Positions 1,350-63,160 of a DNA stretch of 64,000 nucleotides are shown here, in pieces; within the stretch, counting starts at the first letter, position 1; the number at the start of each line of letters is the position of its first letter. The translations under genes and the position numbers were made by a program. The notes under the pieces were generated by a model, which saw nothing but the letters and a program-made list of their open reading frames with translations, did no database searches and had not been told where the DNA came from. Source of the DNA: a virus; the IMG/VR virus record IMGVR_UViG_3300036832_000330, positions 1 to 64,000 of that record, one strand, 5' to 3'.

Positions 1350-1453
1350 GGCGCTCCTCGACGGTGTGTGAGCCATTCCTGCCAGCACTCGTCGCACACA
1401 CCCAGGTCGTTGGCGGCGGCTGGTCGTTTCTCGCAGTGCCAGCAGAGCTTCAT
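1346..1453 (-). CDS. 35-aa Cys4 zinc-finger peptide
   Basis: Hand translation MKLCWHCEKRPAAANDLGVCDECWQEWLTHRRGAP; ATGA overlaps at both ends. Confidence 0.55.
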   Translation of the reverse strand: MKLCWHCEKRPAAANDLGVCDECWQEWLTHRRGAP

Positions 1454-2016
1454 GGCGCACCTCGATCTGCTCGTCGGTACCCAGGATTTTTTACATCAGT
1501 CCTCCTGGTGAGTTCCCGGCTGACCACGGCGGCGTCCCGCTCGGAGGACTCAAACAGCATCTGCTTCAGCTTGCGCCTGGCGTAGTACAGCTTGAGCGCA
1601 TCTCGGGCCGCACGTATTTCGGGATCGGCTTCCATCGCCGCCCGCACCCAGGTGACCGGTTCTGACGCCTTTTCAGGACGGTTGCGTGTGAGGTACAGCC
1701 CTTCCAGCTTTCGGACTTCCATCTCTGCATGGTGTTCGTAGATCTCCTCGATGGCTAGCTGGCTCTGAAAATAATCGGTCCACCGGGTGAAGCGGACGAA
1801 CAGATCCATCAACTGTTTGTCGGTGATGTCATCGATGTCGGTCTGGAGGGTGGGTGGCGTGCTGTCGGGAGCGGTTGGCTCATCGATCCCCAGATCGGTG
1901 TAGACGCCGCGGCTGTGGCCGTTGACCATTTGCTTCAGGGTCTCGCGCAGGTCTAGCGGGGGCCGGCGCTTGATCCGGCGCGGCACGTCGGACGAGGACT
2001 CTTCCGTTACGGTCAT
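1450..2016 (-). CDS. Coiled-coil hypothetical protein (possible recombination mediator)
   Basis: AGGAG RBS before ATG 2016; helical/coiled-coil composition; lies next to the Cas4-like exonuclease and RecA. Function is inferred from context only. Confidence 0.65.
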   Translation of the reverse strand: MTVTEESSSDVPRRIKRRPPLDLRETLKQMVNGHSRGVYTDLGIDEPTAPDSTPPTLQTDIDDITDKQLMDLFVRFTRWTDYFQSQLAIEEIYEHHAEMEVRKLEGLYLTRNRPEKASEPVTWVRAAMEADPEIRAARDALKLYYARRKLKQMLFESSERDAAVVSRELTRRTDVKNPGYRRADRGAP

Positions 2017-2881
2017 GCTTCTCCTCATAGCGGTGACAGTCGGCGCACCCATCGAAGGGGCAGGGTGGGATAGGCCCGCCCTGGAGCGCCATGGTGATTC
2101 GACTACATAGGTCTAGCCGATCTTGGATGCGCTCTTCCCGGTACCGGACGATCATCTCCTTGACCTTCTGGTTCCACTTGGATTCATACAGGAAGAGGAC
2201 TTCGCGATATTTCCGGCTCATGTAGCAGTAAAAATCACCCTGCCTGACGTGGGAGGGGAAGGGCATGCGGATGGAGTCCCACAGCCCGTCGTAGTCCAGG
2301 AACGACCTGGATTTTCCGTTGAGTTGGAACTGGTAGGTATGGGCCTTGATCAGGCCGGGGTTCTCAAAGCGGACAGTGCCCAGGCCGATGGACTTGATCT
2401 CGATGATGGGGCCGTCCCAGCCGTCCAGACCGTCTGCGTGACCCGCCATGTTCAGGTTCTGATTGAGCAGTGGCACCTCGTGGTAACGCAGGAACTGCCG
2501 GCCCTGGTGGCACTTCTCGCACTCCTGGGGAGCCAGGGCCGAGAAGGCGTAGTGACAGGCCGCGCAATAAAATGTACCGGCCAGTCGGCCCAGATCCCAG
2601 ATCCTTTTTTGCCACTTGTGATGGATCTCCTTGCCCTCATCGAAGACCATCTGGAGTTGCCAGTAGCTACCCGCTGGCGCTGAGAGAGCCTCCCGCCCTG
2701 ACAGCCGGTAGTAGCTCGCCCTGGGGCACCAGTCGCTGTGGCTGATCTCCGATGGGTGCAGAGCGTCGACTCTCGGCCCGTTCTCGCTTCCAGGCTGCAA
2801 TAAGAGTCTTTGAACATCCCCAAGGAGTCGGGTGGTCCGCTTCGTCGTTTCTAACAACGCTCGCAAATCTTTGTCGATCAC
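1880..2881 (-). CDS. Cas4-like PD-(D/E)xK exonuclease
   Basis: LHPSEI..WCPR, GKEIHHKWQ, GHADG...IIEIKS, H..Q..FY and C-terminal CxxxxCxxC; GTG start at 2881. Confidence 0.85.
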   Translation of the reverse strand: MIDKDLRALLETTKRTTRLLGDVQRLLLQPGSENGPRVDALHPSEISHSDWCPRASYYRLSGREALSAPAGSYWQLQMVFDEGKEIHHKWQKRIWDLGRLAGTFYCAACHYAFSALAPQECEKCHQGRQFLRYHEVPLLNQNLNMAGHADGLDGWDGPIIEIKSIGLGTVRFENPGLIKAHTYQFQLNGKSRSFLDYDGLWDSIRMPFPSHVRQGDFYCYMSRKYREVLFLYESKWNQKVKEMIVRYREERIQDRLDLCSRITMALQGGPIPPCPFDGCADCHRYEEKHDRNGRVLVRRAAPDQAPAPARPARDPEANGQRPQPRRLHRSGDR

Positions 2882-3218
2882 TGGCCGACGCGGTGATGAC
2901 CCACCCGGCCTGGATAGCCGCGTCACGATGCCTCTGGCGCTTGATCCGACGCCGCTCCCTTTCGCTGGTTCCGCCCCACACGCCCCACCGCTCGCCGTTC
3001 TCGATCGCGTAGTCCAGACAAGCCTCCAGCACGGGGCAACGGCCTGGGTGGTCCGGGTGGGTTCCCAGGCACACGCTTCGGGCCTCCTGCACCTGGGTGT
3101 TGTTGTGCTGGCGGTCGCTGTAGAACAGGTTTCCTGGCAGTCCTTTGCACTTTGCGGAGTCGAGCCACTGGGGATGGATCCGCTCGTAGATGGCCGGCAG
3201 TACCTGCTGGCGGTCCAC
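2667..3218 (-). CDS. whiB: WhiB-family transcription factor
   Basis: WLDSAKC...LFY...ARSVC...CPVLEACLDYA...WGVWGGTSERERR; start codon uncertain. Confidence 0.85.
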   Translation of the reverse strand: MDRQQVLPAIYERIHPQWLDSAKCKGLPGNLFYSDRQHNNTQVQEARSVCLGTHPDHPGRCPVLEACLDYAIENGERWGVWGGTSERERRRIKRQRHRDAAIQAGWVITASASDRQRFASVVRNDEADHPTPWGCSKTLIAAWKRERAESRRSAPIGDQPQRLVPQGELLPAVRAGGSLSASG

Positions 3219-3519
3219 GTAGAACCAGTTCGTGATAACTGGGTTCTGGGAGTACGACCCACTCCCTTCCACCAAGCTCAAAGACGAGAACAGGGCGGCG
3301 AGACTCTGCCATGGCGTGACGGTAGAGACTGATGAGGTCGTCGTAGAGGAGGGTGATGGAGCGACGGTTATCGGTGCGCTTGAACTCGACAAGCTCGGTG
3401 CGGCTACGACCGTCGTTCTTACGGTCCCAACGCGCACCAGAACGCGGGTTCGTGACACCTCCAAACCGCTCCATTCCCTTCTTCTCTTGCCGCCTCCACA
3501 GGCGGGTTCGCGTCCTCAT
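2923..3519 (-). CDS. Hjc-like PD-(D/E)xK Holliday junction resolvase / endonuclease
   Basis: QEK..GG..NPRSGA.W.RKNDG....LVEFKRT..SITL...PVLVFEL; ATGA coupling to recA; long tail overlapping whiB. Confidence 0.7.
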   Translation of the reverse strand: MRTRTRLWRRQEKKGMERFGGVTNPRSGARWDRKNDGRSRTELVEFKRTDNRRSITLLYDDLISLYRHAMAESRRPVLVFELGGREWVVLPEPSYHELVLRGPPAGTAGHLRADPSPVARLRKVQRTARKPVLQRPPAQQHPGAGGPKRVPGNPPGPPRPLPRAGGLSGLRDRERRAVGRVGRNQRKGAASDQAPEAS

Positions 3520-4610
3520 TTCTTGGCTCTGACGAGCCGCCGACTGGAGGGGCGGGGACCAGGCTCCTCGCGGCGAATGCCCTTCACTACGTGGTTCTGG
3601 ATAGCCTCCTGCAACTTCTGCTGCAATGTCAAGTCCCATCTGGCCTGTTCCTCCAGGGCGGCGCGGCCATGCCAGGACTCGGTGTCCAGGTGGTAGTAGC
3701 TGCCCTTGATCGAGAACACCTCGTAAAGAACGCCCAGCGTGACCAACTCCTTGCCCAGGTCATACGATCCGGGTGAGATGCCGGCGCTGTTGTGGTCGAA
3801 GTAGAAGTCGAACACGGCCACCCGCTCGGGCGGGAAGCTCTTGTTCTTCTTGGTCAGGGCCTTGACGGTGATGCCCACCTTGCGCTGGTTCTTGCGGTCT
3901 CCCTCTGTCAGCCAGTCGTCGCGCTTCAACTCCAGCCGGCTGGTGAACCAGTAGTTCTTGGCTCGGCCCCCTGGGGTGGTGCGGGGATCACCGAACAGGA
4001 CGCCGATCTTCTCCCGCCACTGGTTGACGACGAAGCAGGTCACGGCCCGGTCGTCCTCCACCAGGGATCGCTTCATGGCGGTGTAGCTCTTCCTGAAGAA
4101 CTTGCCGATCAGGCGCGCCGCCAGGCCCACCTGGGTGTCGTCCATGGTGCCCTCGCCCTCACTTATCGGTGATAGGGCGGGCATGGAGTCGATGACCAGA
4201 ACATCGGCGGTTCTACTCTCCAGAACCATGATGGCGGCGTTGCACGCCTCCTCCAGGATGTTGGTCTGCATGACCAGGATCTTGTCGGTGTCGCAGCCCA
4301 GGTCACGCGCCCAGCCCGGTACGAACTCCTCAGCCGCCACCCAGAAGGTGACGTGGTCAGGGTTGAGGGCCTGCTGGACGGCGATGGTCTTCAGGATGAT
4401 GGTGGTCTTGCCTGAACTCTCGTCGCCGTATAGCTCGTGGAAGGCGTTGGTCTGCCAGCCGCCCCCCAGGGCCATGTCCAGGCTGTAGCTCCCGGTGGAG
4501 ATACGAGGCAGGTCGGAGTAGCGGATCTGGCTGCCCCAGACCACGGTCTCGGGACCGTACTCCTTGTTGATCTCGGCCATCACCGTGGTGATGGTGTCGG
4601 TCTTGGTCAT
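3516..4610 (-). CDS. recA: RecA/UvsX-like recombinase
   Basis: ISTGSYSLDMALGGG, Walker A GDESSGKTT, VIDS, NQWREKIGVLFGDPRTTPGG. Confidence 0.97.
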   Translation of the reverse strand: MTKTDTITTVMAEINKEYGPETVVWGSQIRYSDLPRISTGSYSLDMALGGGWQTNAFHELYGDESSGKTTIILKTIAVQQALNPDHVTFWVAAEEFVPGWARDLGCDTDKILVMQTNILEEACNAAIMVLESRTADVLVIDSMPALSPISEGEGTMDDTQVGLAARLIGKFFRKSYTAMKRSLVEDDRAVTCFVVNQWREKIGVLFGDPRTTPGGRAKNYWFTSRLELKRDDWLTEGDRKNQRKVGITVKALTKKNKSFPPERVAVFDFYFDHNSAGISPGSYDLGKELVTLGVLYEVFSIKGSYYHLDTESWHGRAALEEQARWDLTLQQKLQEAIQNHVVKGIRREEPGPRPSSRRLVRAKK

Positions 4611-8569: not shown

Positions 8570-9289
8570 CTAGTCCGAGAAGGCGTCAGCTACTTTTTGT
8601 AGCTCAGCCTTGGAAGCAACGTCGAGGGATGTGTCGTCCCAGAGGCGGTCGTCAAACTTGGCGATCTCCTCTTCGGACAGTGGCTCAAAATTCCAGTCCT
8701 CTTTGAGGTCTCGGTTTTTGATGGGGCGAATCTGAGTGCGGCGGCTGTTCTTCGGCCCCCTCATGGCGACGGCAAAATACCGACCACTCAGAGGCTCATC
8801 CTGAGAATACTCCTCCAGGGCCTCAGTGACCGACACACCACATTCAAAGGTGGTCAGGATGGGTGTGTCGCCTCCGCAGTCCAGGATATTGAAGCGGACC
8901 CTGGCACCGGGCTTGGGGTCGACATCGTCCAGAGGGCAATCCTCCTGGAGGCACACGTAGCTGAGCCGGCTGCCCCTGGGCATCCACTCACACCAGTGCA
9001 TGAGGAAGCTGGCGTAGGGGCCATCCTCCAGGAACATGATCAGGGCCTCCTCGTCCTGAACCTTGTACAGCTTGGTGAACTGGGAGGGGGCGTTGGCCTT
9101 GGTGCGGCGGTAGCCACTCCAGCCCTTGGCTACGGCCAGGCCGCGGTCATCGTCGGCGTTATCACGGGCCGGGGCGCGCCGGGTCTTGGCCGGCTCGGGT
9201 GCTTCACGCCGCAGACGGCGGGGTTCGGCTGGGGCCTCGTCGTATTCCTCCGCTGGACGGGGGCGAACCAGTCTTCTTGTCGGTGCCAT
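8570..9289 (-). CDS. ssDNA-binding protein (gp32-like)
   Basis: AAGGAG RBS, MAPTRR...; FLEDGPYASF.MHW, SYVCL..DCPL, acidic C-terminus; adjacent to the polymerase. Confidence 0.7.
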   Translation of the reverse strand: MAPTRRLVRPRPAEEYDEAPAEPRRLRREAPEPAKTRRAPARDNADDDRGLAVAKGWSGYRRTKANAPSQFTKLYKVQDEEALIMFLEDGPYASFLMHWCEWMPRGSRLSYVCLQEDCPLDDVDPKPGARVRFNILDCGGDTPILTTFECGVSVTEALEEYSQDEPLSGRYFAVAMRGPKNSRRTQIRPIKNRDLKEDWNFEPLSEEEIAKFDDRLWDDTSLDVASKAELQKVADAFSD

Positions 9290-10554: not shown

Positions 10555-10911
10555 TTAAGAGGGCGCTCGGGGATCACCTCCCCTGTCATGGGCGTTGCCG
10601 ACGACGTACCAGGGGCGTCCGTTCTCGTCGGCCACGGCCAGCAGCCGCTCTGTGGCGCGGTTGTGGCTCATACGATCCATGAAGGCGATCACGATGTTGG
10701 GGTCACGCCATTCGTAGACCCGGCGGTGTCGGAGGTACTTGAACTGCTCCACCTCAAACTGGAGGTCGACCAGGCTGCCGTCGTCCTGGATGATGATGGT
10801 CTCGCCCCAGTGACGGGCCTGGGTGTTCAGCCCCTCCAGGATCACTCGCAGGAGCAGGGTGTCGCTGGTCAGCCGGCTGCCACAAAGCAGGTACTGGGGG
10901 CCGTCCTTCAA
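10555..10911 (-). CDS. Degenerate SLOG/YspA-like protein
   Basis: LLCGSR...IIIQD...PNIVIAF....RAT..LL..A...GRP pattern, but the GGAxGAD loop is missing. Confidence 0.5.
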   Translation of the reverse strand: MKDGPQYLLCGSRLTSDTLLLRVILEGLNTQARHWGETIIIQDDGSLVDLQFEVEQFKYLRHRRVYEWRDPNIVIAFMDRMSHNRATERLLAVADENGRPWYVVGNAHDRGGDPRAPS

Positions 10912-11564
10912 GAACGACCTGAAGTCGCTCGTCGTACCCTTCTGCCGTTACCGTTGTTGTTACGACGGGGTGTGGGTGGGGGAGGAGGCGAGGGACGATG
11001 TCGATTACCCACCCGGACAAGTCTTATGAGCCTTGGACCCTCAGTCTTGGGTTGGTTGCCAACTAGTCTCACGAATGCATGCCCTTGATCGGTCGCAAGT
11101 TTCGCTAGTGCTAGGTACGCATCGCAGCGCACCTTTACGGCGTCGTACGCCTTGTGGGCCTCACCTTTTTGGAATCGATCCGCTGTTCGGAAGTCTTCCG
11201 GTGTTACTACGTCGTACCGTACCTTCTCGTACTTGCTGATCGAGATGGGAAGACGTTTGACTTCATCCCAATCGAGTTCGACCTCACCAGACCCCCACCC
11301 ATAAAAGATCTTGTTTCCAAGTTTATTTTCCTGGCCTTCGATCTGATTGACATCCCGTTCGACCTGCTTGGTTATCGCTGACGTGTCGTTCGGATAGTTC
11401 TGTCGCCCAACGGCGATGGCACGGTTTTTCCAGTCTTTGTCAGTGGTTTTGTAGCGGTCAGGCCGATCCGCACGCAAAGCCGCCCGGATGCGGCTGCGAT
11501 AGGTGTCATCCAGTTCATCGTAGGTTACGACGGTGACAGGCTCGTCTGAGGGTCTTCTGGGCAT
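10908..11564 (-). CDS. Hypothetical protein (partner of the ParB-like gene)
   Basis: 218-aa ORF, visibly more A/T at third codon positions than the flanks; GGAGG RBS. Confidence 0.75.
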   Translation of the reverse strand: MPRRPSDEPVTVVTYDELDDTYRSRIRAALRADRPDRYKTTDKDWKNRAIAVGRQNYPNDTSAITKQVERDVNQIEGQENKLGNKIFYGWGSGEVELDWDEVKRLPISISKYEKVRYDVVTPEDFRTADRFQKGEAHKAYDAVKVRCDAYLALAKLATDQGHAFVRLVGNQPKTEGPRLIRLVRVGNRHRPSPPPPPTPRRNNNGNGRRVRRATSGRS

Positions 11565-11567: not shown

Positions 11568-12473
11568 TTACTTCACCTCCGTGATGTTTTTTAACTGCTC
11601 CAGTTCGTCTGGCTCAAGCAGATCCACGATCTCATCCGGGATGGGAGCGCCGATCATCGGGGCGAGTGTCTGAAGACTTTCCTGGATCTTGGTGGCCCAT
11701 ACTCGTACACGTTCTTGGCGCTGGCTCTGTATGTCTTCTGCTTCGTCAAGGCTGAGGCTGCCAGACTGGACGCGCTCTGCAAGATCGTCTGACAATTGAG
11801 ACATACGCTCTTCATCGTGTACTCTCTCCAGAGCTTCCTCCAGGGTTAGGCTCTTCGACTCCACAAGGGCGAGCAGTTTTGGATCAAGGCCGTCGAGTTC
11901 CTCCTTGCGCTGCTTGATTTTGTTAGCCGTTTTGTACGCCTCATCCAGGGCCATTCCCCCGGCTAGCACCTTGTCGCTCAACTCTCTAGCGTGATCGAGG
12001 ACGACACCAGCTTGGTGCATCGCTTTCAACCAACCGCTATCGGAAGATCTTCCGATAGCGGTTTTGGTGCCCCGCCTCCAACGCCTGTTGACTCGTTTCC
12101 CTTCCGCCTCCTCACCAATGGCGACGGCCATGGCCTTCACGCCTTCGCTGAGGGTTCGACGGCGGGCGTTGGCGTCGATGATGCACCGGACAGGGTCACC
12201 CTGCTCAACTTTCCACTGGGGTTCCAGGCCAACCAGGGCGCATGCTGCCACTCGGCCAATCCCGTCCAAGCCAAGACCGTTGGGGTCCATGACACATGGC
12301 TCACGTTGCCCGCCAACCTCCATCGAGTCAGCAATGACGCGGATTGCGTCTTCGGAGTGTGGAGGGAAGGACTCGGCCAGGGGGTGCCATCTTCCATTCC
12401 AGGTCACCTGTCCGTTCGATGGGGTTTCTGTGGGCTGTGACCGTCTGATAGTCCGTGCTGGTGCCATGCCCAC
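11568..12473 (-). CDS. ParB-N-like domain protein
   Basis: HPLAESFP...IADSM..GQREP...LDGIGRVAAC...NARRRTLS.G.KAMAVA followed by helical repeats. Confidence 0.7.
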   Translation of the reverse strand: MGMAPARTIRRSQPTETPSNGQVTWNGRWHPLAESFPPHSEDAIRVIADSMEVGGQREPCVMDPNGLGLDGIGRVAACALVGLEPQWKVEQGDPVRCIIDANARRRTLSEGVKAMAVAIGEEAEGKRVNRRWRRGTKTAIGRSSDSGWLKAMHQAGVVLDHARELSDKVLAGGMALDEAYKTANKIKQRKEELDGLDPKLLALVESKSLTLEEALERVHDEERMSQLSDDLAERVQSGSLSLDEAEDIQSQRQERVRVWATKIQESLQTLAPMIGAPIPDEIVDLLEPDELEQLKNITEVK

Positions 12474-14095: not shown

Positions 14096-14970
14096 CAGAA
14101 TGCCGCCAGGGTGGCTTTCTCCAGGCCCCTGTGAACTGCCAGCGGCGATAGCTCCCCTGGATCCTTGCCGTTCAGACCCCGGTAGTTGAACATCGTCATA
14201 GGGATCCGATGGTGCCACTTCTCTATCTGGAGGCGTCGGGTCTCCTTCCGACCGGCGGCGTCATCGTCCAGGGCCAGCACCAGGCGGTGCAGCCGCTCCA
14301 CCAGGAGCTTCATCTGCATGTCGGACACCTGGCAGCCGAAGGCGGCGAGCGCCGGCACGCCCAGGGTGTCCAGGTAGGCCACGTCCAGGGGCGACTCCAC
14401 CAAGACCGCCTGGTCAGAGCGCAGCACGTCGAGGCCAAAGAGGGTCTTGCCCTTCTTGATCCCCGGCGGGTGGTTGCGGATCTCGGCCCCCTTGGACTGC
14501 CAGCCCCACTTATCCCCAGTTGGGGACAAGATGGGGATAACCCAGGCAGCCTCCTCGCAGTCCCAGCGAAGCTGGAAGCGGTCGCACACCTCGGGGGTCA
14601 GGTGCCGACGCTCCAGGGCACGGGGCGGGGGCGGGCCGAACTCCTCCAGCCTGCTCTCCACTACCAGGCCGATAGGCGGCTCCCAAGGGGCCTCGTCGTA
14701 GCTGCCCAGGTCTACGTCGAAGCGCCGGATCATCTGGCGGGCCTCCCACACGCCCACCCCGGCCATGTCCATGATGAGCCGGGTCAGGCTGCCGGCGTAC
14801 TCGCACGAGAAGCAGTGGTGCGCCCCTGAGTGGCGGTTGATCGACCAGTGGTCAGGCCGGCGCTCCAGTTCCCCGGTGCGCTTCTCGTGCATGGGACAGC
14901 GGGCCTGTACCTCCGCGCCCAGGGTGCGGATGTCCTCGACGCCGATGTGTTCCAGTAGCTCCTCGATCAC
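14092..14970 (-). CDS. dnaG: DNA primase (CHC2 Zn finger + TOPRIM)
   Basis: CPMH...CFSC, LVESPLD, LALDDDAAG, KDPGEL. Confidence 0.9.
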   Translation of the reverse strand: MIEELLEHIGVEDIRTLGAEVQARCPMHEKRTGELERRPDHWSINRHSGAHHCFSCEYAGSLTRLIMDMAGVGVWEARQMIRRFDVDLGSYDEAPWEPPIGLVVESRLEEFGPPPPRALERRHLTPEVCDRFQLRWDCEEAAWVIPILSPTGDKWGWQSKGAEIRNHPPGIKKGKTLFGLDVLRSDQAVLVESPLDVAYLDTLGVPALAAFGCQVSDMQMKLLVERLHRLVLALDDDAAGRKETRRLQIEKWHHRIPMTMFNYRGLNGKDPGELSPLAVHRGLEKATLAAFW

Positions 14971-16241
14971 CGTTCCTCTGCACCCAGGTCGTCGTCGTCC
15001 TCGTACTCGATCTCTTCACCCTCCAGGATGGAGCCGTGGTCAAGGTCGACTATCAGCATGACATCCCTGGGCGAGCAGTTGCGAGATGCCAGGATCCGCA
15101 GCAGGGCCTCGTGGTCGTTGGTCTGGCCCTCCCCATCCCTGGTGGACTCCACGCCAAAAACCACGTCGCTGTCCTGGCCGAAGCTGGAGGAATATCCGAT
15201 GGAGTTGAGGCTGAGCTTGCCCCTGGGGGTCTTCCAGGTGAGAGCCTGGGTGGTCTGCACGATAGGCAAGTCAGCCTGCTGAGCCAGCCGCTTGAGGCTC
15301 CTGGTGATCGAGGTCAGGGCCTGGGGCGAGTTGGGCGTGACGCCCGGATCCTCGCACTCCATCATGTACGCACCATCTATATAGACGGCGTCGGGCCGGT
15401 GCTGGGCGATCTTGGCCCGGATGGCCGACACGGTGGTAGCGCCCATGGGGTCATGTACCAGGACGAAGGAGGGCCGGTCCTCTAGCTCGTGCGTCATCCG
15501 CTTGAGCTTCTTCCACTCCCAGTCCAGCATCTGGGCCGGGGCCTGGAGGTGGGACAGGCTGATGCCGGCCCGCAGGGCGTCATGACGGGTGGACTGCTCC
15601 CGGTTGGACATCTCAAAGCTGACGTACATGGTCTTGGCCCCGGCCTGGTTGGCGGCTATATCCATGCACATCAACAGCAGGCTCTTCTTGACCTTGGGGT
15701 TGCCGGCCAGGGTGATCAACTGCCCCTTCTGGAGGCCCCCGGTGGCGCGGTCCATGGAGGGGAAGCCAGTAGGCCAGCCCAGGAGACCCCGGTGCGTGGT
15801 CATGGTCTGGTAGTAGCTCACCCGTTCCTCCCCGGTGTCGTTCATCCGCTCGTCCAGTAGCTCGGTGACCTCCAGGTGCAGGCCCTCTAAGCCCATCGCC
15901 AGGAGTCTCACGGCGATGTCGGTGTCATTGTTGTTGAGCGGCTCCTTGAGACCGTCGAGCATCTCCATAAGCAGGGCGTACTTGCGCTGCTCCCGTAGCT
16001 CATCGATGTAGTAGGCCAGCGGCTCGGGGGTCTCGATCAGGCTGTCGGCGGGGTACTCCCGGTGGAAGGCGTCCGCGCTGGGCGACTCCCCATACCGGGA
16101 CCAGTGGTCCCGCGCCCAGTCGAACATGGCAGCGTTGTCGGGATCAATGAAGAAGGCGGTGGTGATGCGGGCGTGGGCCAGGGCGTCAAAGTCGCGGTCC
16201 TGGATGGTGCGGCAAATGGTCTGGTACTCGATGTCGGGCAT
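14967..16241 (-). CDS. dnaB: DnaB-like replicative helicase
   Basis: PTGFPSMDRATGGLQKGQL, SFEMS, YIDG, ITRSLKRLA, SSSFGQDSD, SRN. Confidence 0.9.
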   Translation of the reverse strand: MPDIEYQTICRTIQDRDFDALAHARITTAFFIDPDNAAMFDWARDHWSRYGESPSADAFHREYPADSLIETPEPLAYYIDELREQRKYALLMEMLDGLKEPLNNNDTDIAVRLLAMGLEGLHLEVTELLDERMNDTGEERVSYYQTMTTHRGLLGWPTGFPSMDRATGGLQKGQLITLAGNPKVKKSLLLMCMDIAANQAGAKTMYVSFEMSNREQSTRHDALRAGISLSHLQAPAQMLDWEWKKLKRMTHELEDRPSFVLVHDPMGATTVSAIRAKIAQHRPDAVYIDGAYMMECEDPGVTPNSPQALTSITRSLKRLAQQADLPIVQTTQALTWKTPRGKLSLNSIGYSSSFGQDSDVVFGVESTRDGEGQTNDHEALLRILASRNCSPRDVMLIVDLDHGSILEGEEIEYEDDDDLGAEER

Positions 16242-16690: not shown

Positions 16691-17283
16691 CGATAGTCCT
16701 CACCCTCCATCGCTACCAGGACCGTGCCCTCACGCAAGAAGCTGGACAGCCCTGGGGTGTACTGCTCATCCAGTTCTGGGAACGACAAGTTGGTGGTGAC
16801 GATGGTGACCATGTTGCGGTTATGGCGGTAGCGCAGCAAGTTGAACACCTGATGGTTCGACCAACCTGATCGTGACTCGGTCTCCCGCCCCAGATCGTCC
16901 AGGAGCAGGAACTGGGACTGCCTCTCGATGTACCGGAGCCGTTCGTCAAGTTTGTCCAGCTTGAAGGCCCGCTCTCCATCTTCGTCAGAGTTAAGGCGGG
17001 CGCTGAGACTGAACTTCTCCATATAGATGTCGATGTAGCTGCTGAGTTCGATGCACTCAATGCGGTAGCCGGCGTCGTTCGCGGCAGTTAGCACAGCACA
17101 GGCAAGGTGGGTCTTACCCACTCCATTCGGACCTGCGAAGGTGATGCCCTTGCCCTGATCCTTCATCACCTTCAGGACGGTGAGATAGTCCCTGGTGACC
17201 TCGACAGCCCTCTCTAGGTCGCCGTTGATGGTCTCAAAGTCATCGAGGCCCTTCTCCTGGTAGTACGGGAATACTTGTTTCAC
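16672..17283 (-). CDS. dnaC: DnaC/IstB-like AAA+ helicase loader
   Basis: GPNGVGKTHLA, LLLDDLGRE, TIVTTNL, GEDYR. Confidence 0.9.
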   Translation of the reverse strand: MKQVFPYYQEKGLDDFETINGDLERAVEVTRDYLTVLKVMKDQGKGITFAGPNGVGKTHLACAVLTAANDAGYRIECIELSSYIDIYMEKFSLSARLNSDEDGERAFKLDKLDERLRYIERQSQFLLLDDLGRETESRSGWSNHQVFNLLRYRHNRNMVTIVTTNLSFPELDEQYTPGLSSFLREGTVLVAMEGEDYRCVGER

Positions 17284-17810
17284 AGTTCCTCTCCTTGGAA
17301 GTTACGGTTGCAGTTACGGCAGTGGTAGCGTTGGCGATCCGGTTGCCCGCGGTGGGTCTGGCGTCCGTTGCGGGACACATAGTCCTGCTGGTCACAGAGG
17401 GGGCAGGGCGGCATGTCGGTTTTAGCCAGTGAGCGTTTGCGCTCGCCGGCCAGGTACCTCTCCCGGAGGGTCTTCGCGGCCAGGCGCGCCTTCCAGTGCC
17501 GGCGGTTCCACTCCTGCCGCCAGTCGTAGTAGGTCTCCTTGCCCTGATAGATCCGCCGCCGCACGTCCTGGGTCAGGCCGGCGAAGGTGCCGTACTCCAG
17601 GTTCTCGTAGTTCGCCAAGGCCCACCGGGTGCAGTCCCGGAACACCGGGCAGCGCACACAGATGGACTGGCACGTCGCCAGGGCCTCGATGCCCTCATCG
17701 AAGTAGACCTCGTTGACCCGGCCCGTGGCGGTCATACAGGCCCTCCGGGGGTCGGTGCTGAAGTCTGGGTCCAGGACGCCCCGGACCCAGAGAGGGGTAC
17801 GCCGGGTCAT
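17280..17810 (-). CDS. whiB: WhiB-like protein fused to an InsA-type Zn ribbon
   Basis: AC...YF...ICVRCPVFRDC..WAL...YGTFAGLT...RR; C-terminal CPLC...VSRNG...QRYHCRNCNRNF. Confidence 0.75.
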   Translation of the reverse strand: MTRRTPLWVRGVLDPDFSTDPRRACMTATGRVNEVYFDEGIEALATCQSICVRCPVFRDCTRWALANYENLEYGTFAGLTQDVRRRIYQGKETYYDWRQEWNRRHWKARLAAKTLRERYLAGERKRSLAKTDMPPCPLCDQQDYVSRNGRQTHRGQPDRQRYHCRNCNRNFQGEEL

Positions 17811-34654: not shown

Positions 34655-35256
34655 CGAGCCAACCTGTGCGCCACAGTGCGGTGATGACCCTCAGCGAGCC
34701 AGGTCTTGCCTCCATGCTCGTAGGTTTCTGGCTCGTAAGGCACGCTTTCACCGGGGTAGTCCGGGTCATGTCGCGGTACATCACCCTGGGCGTACTCCCG
34801 CAGGGTGGGCAAGTGGAGGTGGGCCTGGGATGTCCAGACTTCGCCATGTGGATAGCCACGGCTCTCCCCGTACCCCTCAGCGGCACCGACGAGGTGGGGG
34901 GCAGCTACGAGGGGATCGGTATAAGGCTTGTGGGCCTCAGGGTTACGACTGGTCTGGCGAATATCAGCCTGGGCGAAGACATGCTTGGCAACTCGGCCTC
35001 GGATCACATCAGGAGCTTCTTCACCACCCAGGGAGGGATGTACCCCTAGCAACTGGGCGACATTCTCAGGCTCTTCCTGGAAATCCCGCCAGGGGCGAGG
35101 GTCACCTCTACGTGCTGCTGTCTGCGCTCGCCCCAGACGAGCTTGGTTCTCAGGATCGAGCTTGGGCCGGTTGGCTGCGATGTGTTCTTGCACGCCTGTG
35201 GTGATGCGGTTCTTCCACTGCTCAAACTGCTCGTCGTTGAGAGCTTCGTGGCTCAC
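34651..35256 (-). CDS. ParB/Srx-like protein with MSHEALNDEQF leader
   Basis: TSQ.HL....LREY...P..Y...GKTWLAEGHHRTVAH. Confidence 0.6.
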   Translation of the reverse strand: MSHEALNDEQFEQWKNRITTGVQEHIAANRPKLDPENQARLGRAQTAARRGDPRPWRDFQEEPENVAQLLGVHPSLGGEEAPDVIRGRVAKHVFAQADIRQTSRNPEAHKPYTDPLVAAPHLVGAAEGYGESRGYPHGEVWTSQAHLHLPTLREYAQGDVPRHDPDYPGESVPYEPETYEHGGKTWLAEGHHRTVAHRLAR

Positions 35257-50039: not shown

Positions 50040-51625
50040 TGCCCCGTACTTATGGCACCACCAACGTCATGCCCTACGCCTCTGCGCCGGCAGTGGGCGC
50101 GGTGGGCGACGAGTACTACAACACCACCAACAAGTTCCTGTACCTCTCGGACGGCACGGCCTGGAACGCCATTATGGGTGGGGGAGGAGGAGGTGGTGGC
50201 TCGCCGGCCTGGGTGGGCACCATCACCTCGCCGGTAGCGGGGACCACCTACACCCTGACCCACAACCTCAACACCTCGACGCCCTTCGTGCAGCTATGGG
50301 ATGCCGTCACGCTGGTGCAGGTCATCGGTCAGGTGGTGGCTGTCAACGCCAATCAGGTACAGGTCACCTTCTCGGCCACCCCGGCCCACAACGTGACGGT
50401 GGTGGTAGGCGGCATCTCGGCGGTAGGCACGGCCACCTCCACTGGCCCCTGGACTGGGACCATCTCCACGCCCGCCGCCAATACCGCCTACACCCTGACC
50501 CACAGTCTGAATACCGCCACCCCCATCGTGCAGATGTACGACGCCGTGACCAGGGCACAGATCATGGGTCAGATCGTGGCGACCACCGTCAACTCCATCA
50601 CGGTCACCTTCACCCAGGCCCCGCCCAACAACGTCACGGTGGTCATCAGCACGGGCGGCATAGCCGCCTCTGGTGTCGCGCCCTCTGGTCCCTGGACTTC
50701 CGCCATCGTCAGTCCCGCTGCCCTGACCACCTACACCCTGACCCACAGCCTGAATAGCTCTACACCTTTGGTGCAACTCTGGGATGCGGTCACCAAGCTC
50801 CAGGTGCAGGCCCAGGTGACGGCGCTCGACGCCAACCGCATAGCGGTCCTCTTCGCCACGGCCCCACCCAACAACGTCAACGTGGTGGTGAGCAGCGGAG
50901 GTGGCACGCCCGGACCCACGGCTGCCAATGTCTATTACCTGACCTACTACCAGACCATCCCGGCAGTGCAGGCCGGCTCGCCCTACACCCTGAACCACAG
51001 GCTCAACAGCACCCAGATCATCGTGCAGCTATGGGACGCGACCACCCTCCAGTTGGTGCAGGCCCAGGTTCAGATCATCGACGCCAATAACATCCGCATC
51101 AGCGTGGCTCAGTCCATGCCCAACGCCGTGAACGCGGTGGTGATGATCGGTCCTAGCACTCCTGCGGCGGTCAACCCTGGCGACATGGCGAGCAAATCCT
51201 ACGTTGATACCGCAGGGTCCACCCGCTATGCCTTCAGGGGTGTGCGGACTGCTGCGCTTAACTCATCTGGCACAGCAGCCACTTCACAGATCGTGGTGTT
51301 CGATCAGGCACCTGTCAATCAGGGCAACTGTTACAACACTACTACCGGTCTGTATACCTGCCCGGTTGCTGGTGTGTACATGGTTCACGGCGGGTTAGGG
51401 TGGAACCTGAGTGCGTCGGGCCAGGGTTTTACACAAATATTTAAAAACGGTGCCGAAGTGCGACGTGTAGGTATTACCAGCTCTGGATATGCCGAGACTA
51501 GTGTTACATACATCGATCTGTGCGTGGCAGGGGACACATTCCAACTGAATAATCAGAGTTCGTTGACTACCCAAGGTATTCGGCTCGGCACTGAAACCTA
51601 CTTCAATGCTGTATTCATGGGATAG
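50039..51625 (+). CDS. Tail fibre with four HNL modules and a C-terminal C1q-like domain
   Basis: Four TH(N/S)LN..P.VQ(L/M)(W/Y)DA.T repeats; FD...NQGNCYNTTTGLYTCPVAGVY. Confidence 0.85.
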   Translation: MPRTYGTTNVMPYASAPAVGAVGDEYYNTTNKFLYLSDGTAWNAIMGGGGGGGGSPAWVGTITSPVAGTTYTLTHNLNTSTPFVQLWDAVTLVQVIGQVVAVNANQVQVTFSATPAHNVTVVVGGISAVGTATSTGPWTGTISTPAANTAYTLTHSLNTATPIVQMYDAVTRAQIMGQIVATTVNSITVTFTQAPPNNVTVVISTGGIAASGVAPSGPWTSAIVSPAALTTYTLTHSLNSSTPLVQLWDAVTKLQVQAQVTALDANRIAVLFATAPPNNVNVVVSSGGGTPGPTAANVYYLTYYQTIPAVQAGSPYTLNHRLNSTQIIVQLWDATTLQLVQAQVQIIDANNIRISVAQSMPNAVNAVVMIGPSTPAAVNPGDMASKSYVDTAGSTRYAFRGVRTAALNSSGTAATSQIVVFDQAPVNQGNCYNTTTGLYTCPVAGVYMVHGGLGWNLSASGQGFTQIFKNGAEVRRVGITSSGYAETSVTYIDLCVAGDTFQLNNQSSLTTQGIRLGTETYFNAVFMG

Positions 51626-56406: not shown

Positions 56407-57038
56407 TAGGTGAAGGTCATACCGCCGGCCAGGGTGGCAGAGCCGCCCGTGGTGGTCACCTTCACGTCGACTGCCGGCGGGCCTGCCACGTTGGTGGTGC
56501 CAGTGGTGCAGGTCAGTTCGCCGTCGTTGACTACGACCACTGACGTGCAAGCCACGCCACCGATGGTCACGCTCGGAGCCGACACGCTGAAGCCGCCACC
56601 CATGATGGTGACTGGGGTGGCTGCGCCGTGGACTGCCGTGGTGGGGCTGATGGTGCCCACGCTCGGTGCCCCGCCCGTGATGCCGTTGATGGCATTGATG
56701 GCGTTGGTGTTGCCGGTGCTGGAGTTGGTCAGCCGGGTCTTCTCGGCGTTCAGGGCGGTGTTGGCAGCCAGGTCACGCTCCATGATCTGGGCATCCGGCC
56801 AGGTGACAGAGGCCGTCGCCACCGGGCTGATGGCCTGGCCTGGAGAGGTGGTGGGCGCGCCCGGTCCCGGCTGGTTGGGGGCCACGTTCATCTGCCCCCA
56901 GTTGGGGGTGTAGTACGGCGACATGCACCATTGGCTGGCGCTGACGATCTTGGGCTGCACCAGGGCAGCGGCAGCCTGGTTGGCCGGCAGTTCCTTGACG
57001 TTGATGATGTAGGGGAGGGTGGCGGGATCGTAGGGCAT
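56406..57038 (-). CDS. IPT/TIG-domain protein
   Basis: PSVGTISPT.....TPVTI.GGGF.....VTIGGVACT.V.VVND.ELTCT. Confidence 0.8.
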   Translation of the reverse strand: MPYDPATLPYIINVKELPANQAAAALVQPKIVSASQWCMSPYYTPNWGQMNVAPNQPGPGAPTTSPGQAISPVATASVTWPDAQIMERDLAANTALNAEKTRLTNSSTGNTNAINAINGITGGAPSVGTISPTTAVHGAATPVTIMGGGFSVSAPSVTIGGVACTSVVVVNDGELTCTTGTTNVAGPPAVDVKVTTTGGSATLAGGMTFT

Positions 57039-57814
57039 TACACATTCTCCTCTGTGACTTGTCCTGCTTCGGGATCAGAATGCGTGTGCGCGGGCACGTC
57101 CTCAGCTTGTTGCCCGTATCCAGCCTGTCGGTCCTGCTCTGTCTCTGGCTCTGGCTCTGACTCTGCCGCCACTTCCCGCTGCTGCTGCTCGGCCTCCGCT
57201 GCTGCCCCGGCTTCGGTCGGTCCCCTTCCTTCTCTCTCCTCGCCCTCTGCCACTTCCTCCTCTTCAGCTACGGGAGGCGTGTAGCCCTCCAGGCGGGGAT
57301 CCTCCACGATGACGCCGCTGGCAGCCATGGTCTCGACGTGATCCGCGATGTTGGCCTGGGCCATGGCGTGCTGCTCAGGAGGTAGCTGTAGACCCAGGTC
57401 TACGGACTCCGGGTTGCGCTCGATGAACTGCTGGGCGGCAGCGGTGTTGGCCGGCAGTTCGTCAGGGCTGTAGACCCGCTTGTAGGGGTCGACGGCCACC
57501 TCTACTGCCCCGGCCTCGACTTCACCCCTATCGACGGCCTCCTGCTCGGCCCTGGCCTGGGTGCCCTGGGGCGTGCCGGCAGCCTCCTGCTCAGCCTGAG
57601 CCTGGGTGCCCATCGGGGTGCCGGCAGCCTCCTGCTCGATCTCAGCCTGGGTGGGGCGACCGGCTTCTTGGCCTTCACTGGGCGCAGTGTCGGCGTCGTT
57701 CTGCTGAAGCCGGCTGATCAACTCGTCCTTGTTCCCTGAGGTGTGGAGGCTTCTGCTCCGAAGCTCGTCCCGTAGCTCTTCCACGGTCCTGTTCTGGTAC
57801 TGGTCATCAGCCAT
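57038..57814 (-). CDS. SAP-domain acidic protein
   Basis: YQNRTVEELRDELRSRSLHTSGNKDELISRL followed by Glu/Ala-rich repeats. Confidence 0.8.
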   Translation of the reverse strand: MADDQYQNRTVEELRDELRSRSLHTSGNKDELISRLQQNDADTAPSEGQEAGRPTQAEIEQEAAGTPMGTQAQAEQEAAGTPQGTQARAEQEAVDRGEVEAGAVEVAVDPYKRVYSPDELPANTAAAQQFIERNPESVDLGLQLPPEQHAMAQANIADHVETMAASGVIVEDPRLEGYTPPVAEEEEVAEGEEREGRGPTEAGAAAEAEQQQREVAAESEPEPETEQDRQAGYGQQAEDVPAHTHSDPEAGQVTEENV

Positions 57815-58242: not shown

Positions 58243-58608
58243 TCAGGACGCCTGACGCACCAGCACCCGGCGAGGTGGTGCCGGCTCCTCCTCCTCCTCC
58301 TCCACCTGGGGTCGGATGCGCTCGTTGGTGTCCCACTCCTGGAGGCCCCGGCGAGCCAGAGTCTGCTGTACGTACTGGTACGGCCAGTTGTTCAGGTTGC
58401 GGGAGATCTCCATGATGCCCTGGCCGTCGAGGAACATGGCGACGATGGTCTCGTCCCGGATCTGGGACTCGTCCCACTTGGACATGGGGGTCTCGGAGCA
58501 GTCCTCGCAGCACCAGAACACGAACCGTCCTATGCGGCGTCGGTAGCCCATGAACACCCCGCAGGCGCGGCAGCGCATCTCCTGGAGTTCATCATCCTGG
58601 TCAGCCAT
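58243..58608 (-). CDS. Zn-finger + HTH protein
   Basis: CRAC...WCCEDC, then I..MFLDGQGIMEISRNL...YVQQTLARRG. Confidence 0.65.
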   Translation of the reverse strand: MADQDDELQEMRCRACGVFMGYRRRIGRFVFWCCEDCSETPMSKWDESQIRDETIVAMFLDGQGIMEISRNLNNWPYQYVQQTLARRGLQEWDTNERIRPQVEEEEEEPAPPRRVLVRQAS

Positions 58609-58730: not shown

Positions 58731-58972
58731 CAGCCCGCCTTTCTGAGAGCGGCGATGACATCGTCCAGGTAGCTGGCCGGGAAGACCGCGCCGCTCATGT
58801 TCTGGCCGTTGGGGAGCAGGTTGATGCCGACTCTGATGTAGTCGTCGTTCCCCCCGGTGGTGATCCTGGTGACCCGAACCTCTCGACTGTCGCCTAGTTT
58901 GACTCGGCTCATGACCTTGGGGGGGCGGATGGTCCTGGTGGGGTTGGGCTTGGTGCTGTTCTTTTCAGGCAT
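58730..58972 (-). CDS. PC4/YdbC-like ssDNA-binding protein
   Basis: EVRVTR....G..DYIRV......G....G..FP...LDDVI.AL pattern. Confidence 0.5.
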   Translation of the reverse strand: MPEKNSTKPNPTRTIRPPKVMSRVKLGDSREVRVTRITTGGNDDYIRVGINLLPNGQNMSGAVFPASYLDDVIAALRKAG

Positions 58973-60599: not shown

Positions 60600-60615
60600 T
60601 GTGACGTACGTCACA
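60600..60615. promoter_or_regulatory. CRP/GlxR-type operator
   Basis: Perfect palindrome TGTGA-CGTACG-TCACA in a divergent intergenic region. Confidence 0.65.
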
Positions 60616-60660
60616 CCGGAACAGCGCACATCCATCTGCTCACTATGATATGCTGTACTC

Positions 60661-60900: not shown

Positions 60901-60908
60901 GAGGGTAG

Positions 60909-61226
60909 ATGGAACAGCCCACTTACGAGAGTGAGTTCCCCAAGCATCTCGGCCCGCCTCCGGTTCCTAACGGGACCGGGGGCAAGCTGCACGATGCCAC
61001 CAAGCCCACCTACCTGCTCCAGCTTGACTCTGGAGCCTTCATGGCTGTCTGGGAACACATGGAAGCTGAGGCACGGCACCGCTTCCCCACCAGGGGCACC
61101 TATGCCCACGCTCGCGCTTACCTGCGCGCCGTCGAGGCATTCCGCAAGTGCTACTGGGCCAACCACGAGGCCCCGGATCCTCCCAAGCCGACGCCGGTTC
61201 GCCGGCTGGTGAGGAGGGGACGATGA
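60909..61226 (+). CDS. Hypothetical protein
   Basis: GAGG RBS; C-terminal PVRRLVRRGR. Confidence 0.65.
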   Translation: MEQPTYESEFPKHLGPPPVPNGTGGKLHDATKPTYLLQLDSGAFMAVWEHMEAEARHRFPTRGTYAHARAYLRAVEAFRKCYWANHEAPDPPKPTPVRRLVRRGR

Positions 61227-61474: not shown

Positions 61475-61489
61475 GGGTGTAAGCAGGAG

Positions 61490-61654
61490 CTACCAGTAGT
61501 ACCTCCGCGTGCCGGTGTAGCCGCCCCGGAAGGTCGGTGCCGCCCAGAACAGAGCTAGGCAGACGGCAGCCACGATCAGGATGACGCCGATGATCCAACT
61601 CACGAACAGCAAGCAGACCAAGCCGACGATGAGAAGCAATCCAGCTAGAGCCAT
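61490..61654 (-). CDS. Small 2-TM membrane protein
   Basis: Hand translation MALAGLLLIVGLVCLLFVSWIIGVILIVAAVCLALFW...GTRRYYW. Confidence 0.65.
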   Translation of the reverse strand: MALAGLLLIVGLVCLLFVSWIIGVILIVAAVCLALFWAAPTFRGGYTGTRRYYW

Positions 61655-61686
61655 GGGCAGTACTTACCCACAACTAGCCTTGGCAT

Positions 61687-61908
61687 ATGACTACTGCTCC
61701 CGCACCTGGACAGCCTGGTCAGCGTCGGTACTGGTACAACGCTCCCGCGGCGTACTCTCCCTTCCTCCGAGTGCTGGCCGTGGCATGTGTTATTGCCATC
61801 TTGATCGTCGGGATTCTCATCCTGGCTGACGACAAGGTGACCGTAGACCGAGTGGCCTCAGGATTCATCGCCACCGGAGTCTTGGGAGCCATCCTGGTCT
61901 TCCTCTGA
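61687..61908 (+). CDS. Small 2-TM membrane protein
   Basis: QRRYWYN, then two hydrophobic helices; TAGCCT leaderless start. Confidence 0.65.
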   Translation: MTTAPAPGQPGQRRYWYNAPAAYSPFLRVLAVACVIAILIVGILILADDKVTVDRVASGFIATGVLGAILVFL

Positions 61909-62055
61909 GTCGCTGCCCTGGTCGGACTCTTCCAGACGGGCTACGAGATCTTCCTTCTTGCCGGTCTTGGGCAGATCCCGCTCGGCTAGCTCGTCCTTCA
62001 ACTCAGCCACGGTCTGGCTCTCGTAGGGGGTCTCGGTTTCGTTCTCTTCGGGCAT
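61858..62055 (-). CDS. SAP-domain protein
   Basis: YESQTVAELKDELAERDLPKTGKKEDLVARL. Confidence 0.8.
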   Translation of the reverse strand: MPEENETETPYESQTVAELKDELAERDLPKTGKKEDLVARLEESDQGSDSEEDQDGSQDSGGDES

Positions 62056-62085
62056 GCCTCTACTCCTGCCCCTCTGGCCGGCGCG

Positions 62086-62343
62086 TCAATCAGCAGGGAT
62101 CAGGTTCTCCAGCATGCCCAGGCACGCCTCCAGGTGCAGGCGTAGCTCCAGTAGCTGATCGAGTTGGGTCTCTCGGTCATCGGCAAGCTGTCGGTACCGG
62201 GAGATGGTCTGGCCGCACTGCATGAGGATCAGGTCGACCTCGTTGACGAGTTCCGGCTCCCGCAGGGAGGCTGACCGGTCCCTGGCCTTCTTCCAGAACC
62301 CGGTGTCGCGTCGATCTCTTCGCCAGTCCTTAAGAACTGACAC
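62086..62343 (-). CDS. Hypothetical protein
   Basis: 85-aa helical ORF. Confidence 0.6.
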   Translation of the reverse strand: MSVLKDWRRDRRDTGFWKKARDRSASLREPELVNEVDLILMQCGQTISRYRQLADDRETQLDQLLELRLHLEACLGMLENLIPAD

Positions 62344-63160
62344 TGGCTGACTTGCCCACCCTGACCAGGCGTCGCCGCTGTGGAAGCTCGGTGATGGTGG
62401 CTAGCTCGGGCTTGCTCACCCGCTTCTTGGCCTCTCGCTCCTTGAGCCGCCTGGCTCGGGCCTTCTCCAGTTCCCTCTGCTTGGCCTTGTCAGCCGCCCT
62501 GGCCTCCTTGGACCCCGGCACCAGGCCGTCCTTCCTGGGACGGCCACGAGGCCGCTCGGAGGGGGTCTTGTTGGCTCCAGGAGGTGGGATGGAGAAGGCT
62601 GTCTTGGTGAAGGTGTGCCGGGGTCCGAACTTGGTCCGGGATCCCGGTGTGTTGAAGTCCAGGGTGGCCTTGGACTCCGACTCCAGGGGCACCGCCGGCA
62701 GGACGTACTGGGCCGGCTTGGTCTGCACCACGATCTTGAAGTCGCTGCCGGCCAGGGACAGGGCGTCCTGGACGTGAGCCGGCAGCCCGTTGGTTGGCCC
62801 GGTGTTGAAGATCGAGTTGGCCCACGCCTCGATGTCGGCCTGGGTCTTGATCTGCTTGTTCAGGAGGCCCTTGACCCTGATCCCCAGCTTCTCTAGTTGA
62901 GGGATGGTGTCAGGGAAGGCGGCTAGAAGCTCCAGGGCGTTCTGCCGCAGCTTGTCGACGCGCTCGGGGTTAGACGAGTACTCCATCCCCGGCCAGATGA
63001 CGGCAGTGTTCCTGAACCACGTCCAGGTGCCCCCGTTGTAGACCGGGATATAGCCCACTCTCCCCAGCTTGAGGCTGCCGTTGGAGGCAGTGATTTTTTG
63101 CCAAGCCTCAGTTCCGTTCAACTCCACTCTCCAGATCACTCGCTCTAGCCACGGCGTCAT
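62330..63160 (-). CDS. Hypothetical protein with AT-hook-like RPRGRPRK
   Basis: 276-aa ORF with a basic C-terminus. Confidence 0.7.
   Translation of the reverse strand: MTPWLERVIWRVELNGTEAWQKITASNGSLKLGRVGYIPVYNGGTWTWFRNTAVIWPGMEYSSNPERVDKLRQNALELLAAFPDTIPQLEKLGIRVKGLLNKQIKTQADIEAWANSIFNTGPTNGLPAHVQDALSLAGSDFKIVVQTKPAQYVLPAVPLESESKATLDFNTPGSRTKFGPRHTFTKTAFSIPPPGANKTPSERPRGRPRKDGLVPGSKEARAADKAKQRELEKARARRLKEREAKKRVSKPELATITELPQRRRLVRVGKSASVSS

Follow-up and report, generated by a model that had tools for sequence, protein, structure and literature searches.

The stretch of DNA analysed here, called the window below, comprises the first 64 kb of a phage record that is a single contig of 93,647 bp with 62% GC (IMG/VR record IMGVR_UViG_3300036832_000330), and our subject is a short arginine-rich peptide, hereafter the tag, with the core R-R-L-x-R, that recurs at the termini of RecA, of a protein resembling SSB (a protein that binds single-stranded DNA) and of several other proteins encoded in it. 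The virion module in the window is of the myovirus type, and a long minus-strand replication and recombination operon comprises, in this order, genes for a WhiB-like protein, a DnaC-like loader, a DnaB-like helicase, a primase, a SNF2 helicase, a ParB-like protein, the SSB-like protein, a family-A polymerase, RecA and a Cas4-like exonuclease. Among cultured phages the relatives are Streptomyces Borockvirus-like phages only, and these are distant (portal about 60% identity, RecA about 40%); a megablast search of the window against cultured phages returned no match. The WhiB domain and the kinship with Streptomyces phages suggest that the host is an actinobacterium. At the head of the operon (17280-17735, minus strand) the WhiB-like domain is fused with a zinc-ribbon-like C-terminus, which also supports such a host. 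At about residue 151 the RuvC-like resolvase gene is cut off by the record's start, and because the remainder is absent from the other contig end the record is probably incomplete. For comparison we used five large related IMG/VR contigs (G001, G002, G004 and G005 among them), which make six genomes with the present one, and clustered all of their predicted proteins.

Table 1. Copies of the tag, variants of it and associated features, with positions in the window
Feature	Position	Strand	Gene or protein	Details
RecA tag RRLVR	3528-3542	minus	gene 3516-4610	residues 357-361 of 364; tail PSSRRLVRAKK; Pfam RecA 7.6e-52
SSB-like tag, copy 1, RRLVR	9263-9277	minus	gene 8570-9289	residues 5-9; protein starts MAPTRRLVRPRP
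SSB-like tag, copy 2, RRLRR	9206-9220	minus	gene 8570-9289	residues 24-28 (PRRLRRE)
Cas4-like exonuclease tag RRLHR	1895-1909	minus	open reading frame 1880-3262	C-terminal PRRLHRSGDR, ending at the stop; phrog_2506 exonuclease 1.5e-19, phrog_1706
RRIKR tag	1966-1980	minus	gene 1450-2016	residues 13-17; VPRRIKRRP at residues 11-19
DUF6424 protein tag RRLVR	62360-62374	minus	gene 62330-63160	residues 263-267 of 276; PQRRRLVRVGK 9 residues before the end; PF19988 6.6e-15
105-residue protein tag RRLVR	61200-61214	plus	gene 60909-61226	C-terminal PVRRLVRRGR
RRVLVR variant, one extra residue	58255-58272	minus	zinc-ribbon-like protein 58243-58608	C-terminal PPRRVLVRQAS
RLIRLVRVG variant	11007-11033	minus	orphan protein 10908-11564	C-terminal region; sequence read directly
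Second basic block GRRVRR	10929-10943	minus	orphan protein 10908-11564	
ARTIRR, uncertain variant (R-x-I-x-R)	12441-12458	minus	ParB-like protein 11568-12473	N-terminus; phrog_930 7.6e-06; needs an unverified GTG start at 12473
TRTIRP, weak look-alike, uncertain member	58922-58939	minus	80-residue PC4-like protein 58730-58972	residues 12-17; lacks the final Arg of the R-x-hydrophobic-x-R core
RuvC-like resolvase	2-454	minus		truncated by the contig start, tail missing from the record; tblastn identity 68% across residues 1-151; G001 copy matches phrog_159
Acidic, Tyr-containing C-terminal tail EEIEYEDDDD	14988-15017	minus	DnaB-like helicase, gene 14967-16241	DnaB_C 2.2e-25; candidate partner

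The carriers of the tag map either to the replication and recombination operon (1.4-12.5 kb) or to the minus-strand early block (58-63 kb), and no virion or late protein bears it (Table 1). An earlier note on this DNA, in which a basic motif had been described at the termini of many replication and early proteins, listed seven main instances, and each of them was found in the gene to which it had been assigned. The weaker variants that the same note added are less secure: PTRTIRP is kept in one relative but its last arginine is missing, and PARTIRR hangs on a GTG start that was not picked by our gene model. The Cas4-like tail is tagged, as had been suggested, although by a terminal word overlooked earlier, whereas the GRVLVRR then cited sits 35 residues before the end; the true start of this reading frame is probably near 2800, and a PDB sequence search with it returned nothing. 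The C-terminal tail of the Cas4-like protein and the N-terminal tail of the product of the next gene (1450-2016) share a coding stretch of 137 nucleotides that is read in two frames (1880-2016, minus strand). The two genes overlap by 86-149 nucleotides in all five related contigs, each frame's tag facing a variable stretch of the other frame. Homologues of the 1450-2016 protein in the Streptomyces phages Alone3 and GiJojo are annotated as SSB or DNA-binding protein, and the orphan protein at 10908-11564 has no homologue among the related genomes.

The recurrence of the tag exceeds what composition or chance would give. When the 93,647-bp genome is translated in all six frames, RRLVR occurs four times, always in a coding frame and no more than 14 residues from a protein end, with zero copies off-frame. 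The four copies are written CGG CGG CTC GTC AGA, AGA AGA CTG GTT CGC, CGC CGG CTG GTG AGG and CGA CGC CTG GTC AGG, and since the codons differ among copies the repeat resides in the peptide and not in the DNA. The word RRL.R falls within the terminal 20 residues of five proteins, compared with a mean of about 0.27 and a maximum of 3 in 300 residue shuffles (whole-protein and terminal-window). Moreover, when all terminal 5-mers with at most one wildcard were scored by the number of distinct protein families that carry them, R.LVR/RRL.R was the first or joint-first word, with six families in the present genome and 5, 7 and 8 in three related contigs; this count beats the best word of every shuffle in the present genome, G002 and G005, and in G001 (five families) a count of at least 5 was reached in 8 of 30 shuffles. 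Chance is excluded as the origin of the tag, and the over-representation on which the earlier description depended holds against both the shuffled and the off-frame background.

That the motif merely follows from GC-rich composition or from a DNA-level signal, be it a repeat, a terminator or a ribosome-binding site for the gene that follows, has, in our estimate, a nearly negligible probability. AGG codons in some C-terminal copies do make Shine-Dalgarno-like strings just before the next start, as in GTGAGGAGGGGACGATGA at 61209-61226, and two tag-coding stretches of G001 match at 19 of 21 nucleotides; nevertheless, codons vary at most sites among copies, copies at N-termini are unable to serve as downstream ribosome-binding sites, and the peptide is kept in homologues at 35-50% identity. 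A DNA repeat or ribosome-binding-site artefact was ruled out by this codon diversity, by the N-terminal copies and by the lack of off-frame matches in six frames, and a composition artefact by the whole-protein and terminal-window shuffles, which preserve local composition and do not reproduce the tag. The matching G001 stretches (L033/L036, at 50587-51462 and 105706-106335) encode the tags of the DUF6424 and RuvC-like tails, other pairs being about 55-75% identical, and the likeness may be due to gene conversion or to a shared codon preference (CTG GTC AGG GTG GGC AAG).

Comparison with relatives confirmed that the tag is kept, in depth on the RecA, SSB-like and DUF6424 families. About 60 RecA homologues (P0001-P0061), with identity down to 46%, end in P-x-P-R-R-L-x-R-x-K-K, and the tail is absent from the next RecAs beyond this set, which are of the cellular type; a scan with P0254 found no locus. 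Some 50 homologues of the SSB-like protein begin with MP..RRL[VI]RPRPAEEY[DE]E and continue with PRRL[RQH]R, which gives two copies; in the second, P23, R24, R25, L26 and R28 are near-invariant, as is the AEEY[DE]E between the two. In the DUF6424 proteins (about 50 homologues, identity down to 35%) RR(x)L[VA]RVG stands a few residues before the end, and the RR-x-LVR spacing of the 58243-58608 variant is frequent in this family. The tail PRRL[HYS]RSGDR closes the Cas4-like exonuclease in all relatives, relatives of the RuvC-like resolvase end in RRLVRVG[KR], and the N-terminal RR[IL][KR]R.PPLDL of the 1450 family is kept in G001, G002, G004 and G005. Additionally, the G001 orthologue of the 60909-61226 protein ends SVRKLVRRARK and that of the 58243-58608 protein ARRRVLVRQAS, and the TRTIRP of the PC4-like protein is likewise kept in G001. 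Other families are tagged in the relatives, namely an HTH_17 protein (MPRRLVRS), a family of about 320 residues, the 9204 family, an HNH-like protein and several small proteins, so that across the six genomes the tag is found on more than ten families unrelated by BLAST.

From 53 instances we derived the consensus [P/S/T]-R-R-[L>I>V]-x-R, in which positions -1 to -3 are enriched in proline and the second position past the final arginine is G, R or P; the tag is often followed by V-G, P-R-P or K-K. The 10051, HTH and 9204 families gain or lose it, some being tagged in one genome and degenerate in another (MPRRLARED versus MPTKRAAK), and linear motifs usually show such gain and decay between relatives. 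Among the cultured Borockviruses related tags are found on the Cas4 tail only, as two copies of the TRRL/TRRIVR type: the protein of BRock ends PTRVIRRTGTTRRIVRGK, that of Alone3 ends GTTRRLRGTGTTRRLGRS and that of GiJojo carries RPTRRLRSTGPTRKLGG, after which the sequence goes on; the RecAs of Borockvirus-like phages have no such tail. We conclude that the tag is real, under selection and clade-wide in this phage group. Ten or more unrelated proteins, of DNA recombination, of replication and of the early set, bear it, and because it copies the N-terminal peptide of the phage's own SSB-like protein it probably acts as an address common to them all. A full-text search of the literature returned no description of RRLVR-type strings or of shared linear motifs on phage SSB or RecA.

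The position of the tag is also consistent with a peptide that is recognised by a partner. Its placement in disordered termini of non-homologous proteins, as claimed earlier, is borne out by low values of the predicted local distance difference test (pLDDT), which is below 50 over residues 1-49 of the SSB-like protein and 47-55 in the DUF6424 tail from residue 250, compared with values above 90 in the globular part of the latter. In the flanks of the tag P, R and E are over-represented, whereas I, F, Y, M and L are scarce, and acidic tracts commonly adjoin it. Between a C-terminal copy and the stop lie 1-13 residues, or 29 in one case, and about a third of the N-terminal copies start at residues 3-5. 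Like motifs that dock on hub proteins, the tag is a short conserved peptide in intrinsically disordered termini, and its carriers are non-homologous proteins that gain and lose it with the core word kept.

One of the carriers in which the tag is conserved in depth is the SSB-like protein. It has no match in Pfam or PHROGs, and a profile of 52 sequences compared with PDB sequences does not find gp32. The best structural match of a model built with the same 52 sequences was the core of T4 gp32 (8gme_B; Z 6.5, a moderate score, over 155 residues with a root-mean-square deviation of 5.2), followed by gp32 of RB69 (2atq_B, Z 6.4), both ahead of other SSBs with an oligonucleotide/oligosaccharide-binding (OB) fold. 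Foldseek agreed weakly, with probabilities of 0.57-0.77 and E values of about 0.05-0.1. Residues H98, C113 and C118 do not vary and C100 hardly does, which recalls, at the level of sequence, the zinc site of gp32. On the strength of the model, the protein is likely a gp32-like SSB. A profile search enlarged its family to 579 representative clusters, and in 142 full-length representatives with pairwise identity below 50% we found R-x-[LIVM]-x-[RK] within the first 20 residues in 47%, versus 3% in shuffles, mostly from residue 3 (for example MPRTLSRR, MATRRVVRR and MPATRRIIRR). Because this pattern is family-wide at the extreme N-terminus, the tag is, as far as sequence comparison can tell, the N-terminal peptide that this SSB family has had since ancient times. 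Runs of Asp and Glu stand at the end of many distant members, which gives them a three-part layout like that of gp32. The present protein has no acidic disordered C-tail and ends in a conserved helix; it therefore would need another route by which to recruit partners. In its core, a near-invariant RRTQIRP (8723-8743, minus strand) resembles the tag with one added residue and parallels the internal LAST sequence of T4 gp32.

The hydrophobic residue of the tag agrees between the SSB peptide and the RecA tail. It is L in both proteins in all loci of this clade, I in both at L055 (SSB TRRIIRRP, RecA GRRIRRRS) and V in both at L068 (SSB MATRRVVRRS, RecA ending KTVRRRRGR, with a further L068 reading frame ending PKRRVIRRRRMT) and at L071 (SSB MPTKRAVIRQ, RecA ending PTKKQRTVRKKS); at L073 RecA is untagged. 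Since the hydrophobic residue changes in step, the comparison suggests that the SSB and RecA peptides are read by one receptor. The gp32-like fold of the modelled SSB-like protein, the R-x-hydrophobic-x-R found family-wide at its N-terminus and the co-variation of SSB and RecA are new here.

These observations can be accommodated by a mechanism to which we give somewhat less than an even chance, in which client proteins would mimic the N-terminal peptide of SSB and dock on one site, most likely on SSB-coated single-stranded DNA (ssDNA). The tag, R-R-L-x-R or more generally R-x-[L/I/V]-x-R and usually with a proline before it, would be a short linear docking motif that has stood longest and most constantly at the extreme N-terminus of a gp32-like SSB. 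There, by analogy with the B-domain and LAST sequence of T4 gp32, it would probably dock on the neighbouring SSB and so promote cooperative coating of ssDNA. Within this phage clade the same peptide would have been appended to flexible ends of RecA, the Cas4-like exonuclease, the RuvC-like resolvase, DUF6424, small DNA-binding proteins and others, and these clients, by occupying the site meant for a neighbouring SSB, would become concentrated on SSB-coated ssDNA, that is, on recombination and replication intermediates. We infer that the tag binds a protein site and that this site is on SSB. The polarity would be the reverse of the usual one, with the peptide borne by the clients; in bacteria and in T4 it is the SSB that bears the tail and the clients that bear the pocket. 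The tagged set itself, which includes a recombinase, an end-processing nuclease, a resolvase and DNA-binding proteins, is what SSB hubs elsewhere recruit. It is further conceivable, though on balance doubtful, that clients insert into SSB filaments or cap them at the site for the next SSB's N-terminus, which would couple recruitment to local displacement of SSB, and that such a system is widespread across a large family of actinobacterial phages, most of them uncultured, in which the L, I or V dialect of the tag is specific to the lineage. Part of the earlier proposal of a shared partner-binding or recruitment signal is supported by the selection on the peptide, its disordered termini, its gain and loss family by family and the co-variation of SSB and RecA.

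Several observations weigh against docking on SSB. The co-variation amounts to only two or three switches among related phages, and within a single genome the tags do not all follow the SSB peptide strictly, as the SSB of L055 uses I and other tags there use L. The kinship with gp32 rests on a moderate fold score (Z 6.5), with Pfam, PHROGs and PDB sequence profiles empty; the monomer model leaves the N-terminal peptide of SSB undocked on the core, residues 1-49 being of low confidence; and the Streptomyces phage BRock has a clear tag on the Cas4 tail alone. Besides, the internal LAST sequence of T4 gp32 contacts ssDNA, and by analogy the basic peptide could itself bind DNA.

This last point leads to an account, which we hold to be rather improbable, that needs no protein receptor and in which the tag would be a small nucleic-acid-binding arm, adding affinity for DNA or ssDNA in the manner of an AT-hook or of the internal LAST sequence of gp32. 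It would suit the three arginines of the tag, the tandem copies on SSB and on the Borockvirus Cas4, the similar RRTQIRP within the SSB core and the carriers that have an annotation, all of which are predicted to bind DNA (RecA, SSB, nuclease, resolvase, HTH_17 and ParB-like proteins). Yet generic affinity needs no fixed R-R-L-x-R word with a near-fixed leucine in more than ten families, nor does it account for a hydrophobic residue that shifts in step between SSB and RecA; tags commonly stand beside acidic tracts, and upstream of its tag DUF6424 already possesses a helix rich in Lys and Arg as well as an invariant AT-hook-like RPRGRPRK. Docking on another common hub, of the phage or of the host, has a similarly low probability in our judgement. 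The hub might be the tail of the DnaB-like helicase, the AEEYDE segment of SSB or a protein of the host's actinobacterial replisome, which would make SSB just another of the clients. What speaks for a shared peptide under selection applies equally to this arrangement, the helicase tails are acidic and aromatic in all relatives, AEEY[DE]E is near-invariant between the SSB tags, and the replisome of T7 is known to be organised via oppositely charged tails. On the other hand, pairing of two disordered peptides would be unusual, the tag is unlike known clamp-binding (QL[SD]LF) or SSB C-terminal motifs, and the acidic-aromatic word is not widespread at the termini of these genomes: a search for a complementary terminal motif of this kind common to many proteins found it in SSB and the helicase tail only. 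The helicase tail has one aromatic residue amid acids, is similar in relatives and recalls the tail of T7 gp4.

The earlier note had also raised a shared degron, a target of arginine modification or a signal for a compartment or condensate, to which a virion signal may be added; any of these would impose one fate on the DNA-metabolism proteins, and we give little credence to this group of explanations. Exposed basic terminal motifs can be signals for protease adaptors (as with C-terminal signals of the MuA type for ClpX), and the carriers are all early or middle proteins; the tag, however, occurs at both ends of proteins and 1-13 residues inward, which makes it unlikely that a free terminus is recognised. 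An abundant structural protein that coats DNA and keeps the tag as its constant N-terminus across 579 clusters would be an odd site for a degron, and the lack of tagged late or virion proteins is a further point against this group.

Among known systems, T4 gp32 offers the closest parallel. Its basic N-terminal peptide binds the core of the adjacent gp32 and so provides cooperativity, and its C-domain recruits partners such as UvsX and helicases (PMC12893549, PMC11551737). In both phages a short basic peptide (Lys-Arg-Lys-Ser-Thr, residues 3-7, in T4) lies at the extreme N-terminus of an OB-fold SSB, predicted as such in the present case, before a disordered linker, and a look-alike lies inside the core (KRKTS in T4, RRTQIRP here). 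The tag differs in sequence (R-R-L-x-R) and in its obligatory hydrophobic residue, and no homology to gp32 is detectable in the protein sequence; the tag departs from the pattern K/R-K/R-K/R-S/T-S/T at the same position of SSB, and some distant members have R-T-L-S-R-R. Besides, the T4 peptide is not copied to other proteins, the clients there being recruited by the C-terminal A-domain of gp32. The C-terminal tip of bacterial SSB (DDDIPF) is likewise one short peptide on a disordered tail that organises many unrelated DNA enzymes around SSB-coated ssDNA, a role that here is proposed; that tip is acidic and sits on SSB, unlike the basic, client-borne tag. Clamp-binding motifs (QL[SD]LF, the PIP box and the tails of T4 gp45 clients) share with the tag that they are terminal linear motifs borne by clients, at either end, and gained and lost on unrelated proteins. 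They do not resemble it in sequence, the tag consensus having neither the Gln nor the aromatic residue of QL[SD]LF or QxxLxxF-type motifs, and here the motif is found on SSB as well; among the genes of the 64-kb window none was recognised as encoding a clamp. In the T7 replisome, the acidic C-termini of gp2.5 and gp4 bind basic patches of gp5/thioredoxin, and the helicase of the present phage similarly ends in an acidic-aromatic tail; the shared tails of T7 are acidic and found on two proteins only. The tag lacks the R-G-R-P core of AT-hooks, and it also differs from twin-arginine translocation (Tat) signals (S/T-R-R-x-F-L-K followed by an h-region), most copies being C-terminal and the N-terminal ones being followed by acidic, Pro-rich sequence instead of a hydrophobic stretch.

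Hubs centred on SSB and on the clamp explain how dozens of DNA enzymes reach their substrate and, to our knowledge, all well-studied SSB hubs place the tail on SSB. Clients that bear a copy of SSB's own N-terminal peptide would, if the proposal is true, be a new wiring and would provide a simple rule by which phages assemble the machinery of recombination-dependent replication. A terminal R-x-hydrophobic-x-R tag encoded near such an SSB could also mark unknown phage proteins, such as DUF6424 and several orphans, as factors in DNA transactions, and the related tags on the Cas4 tails of Streptomyces Borockviruses would allow part of the model to be tested in a laboratory host.

Some further features of the window deserve mention. 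The globular domain of the DUF6424 protein (residues 13-190, pLDDT above 90) had no fold match in PDB (Foldseek, VIA) and no usable match in the ESM Atlas; between this domain and a long helix lies an invariant AT-hook-like block, RPRGRPRKDGL..PGSKEAKAAD (62531-62554, minus strand). The scan of terminal words also returned ALN.E / LN.EQ / N.EQF in four families (N-terminal MSHEALNxEQF; 34013-35256 in the window and 66477-67702 in the genome), which is a second, unrelated tag. Finally, two minus-strand genes, at 57038-57814 and 61858-62055, encode proteins in which N-terminal SAP-type DNA-binding motifs are followed by long acidic tails.

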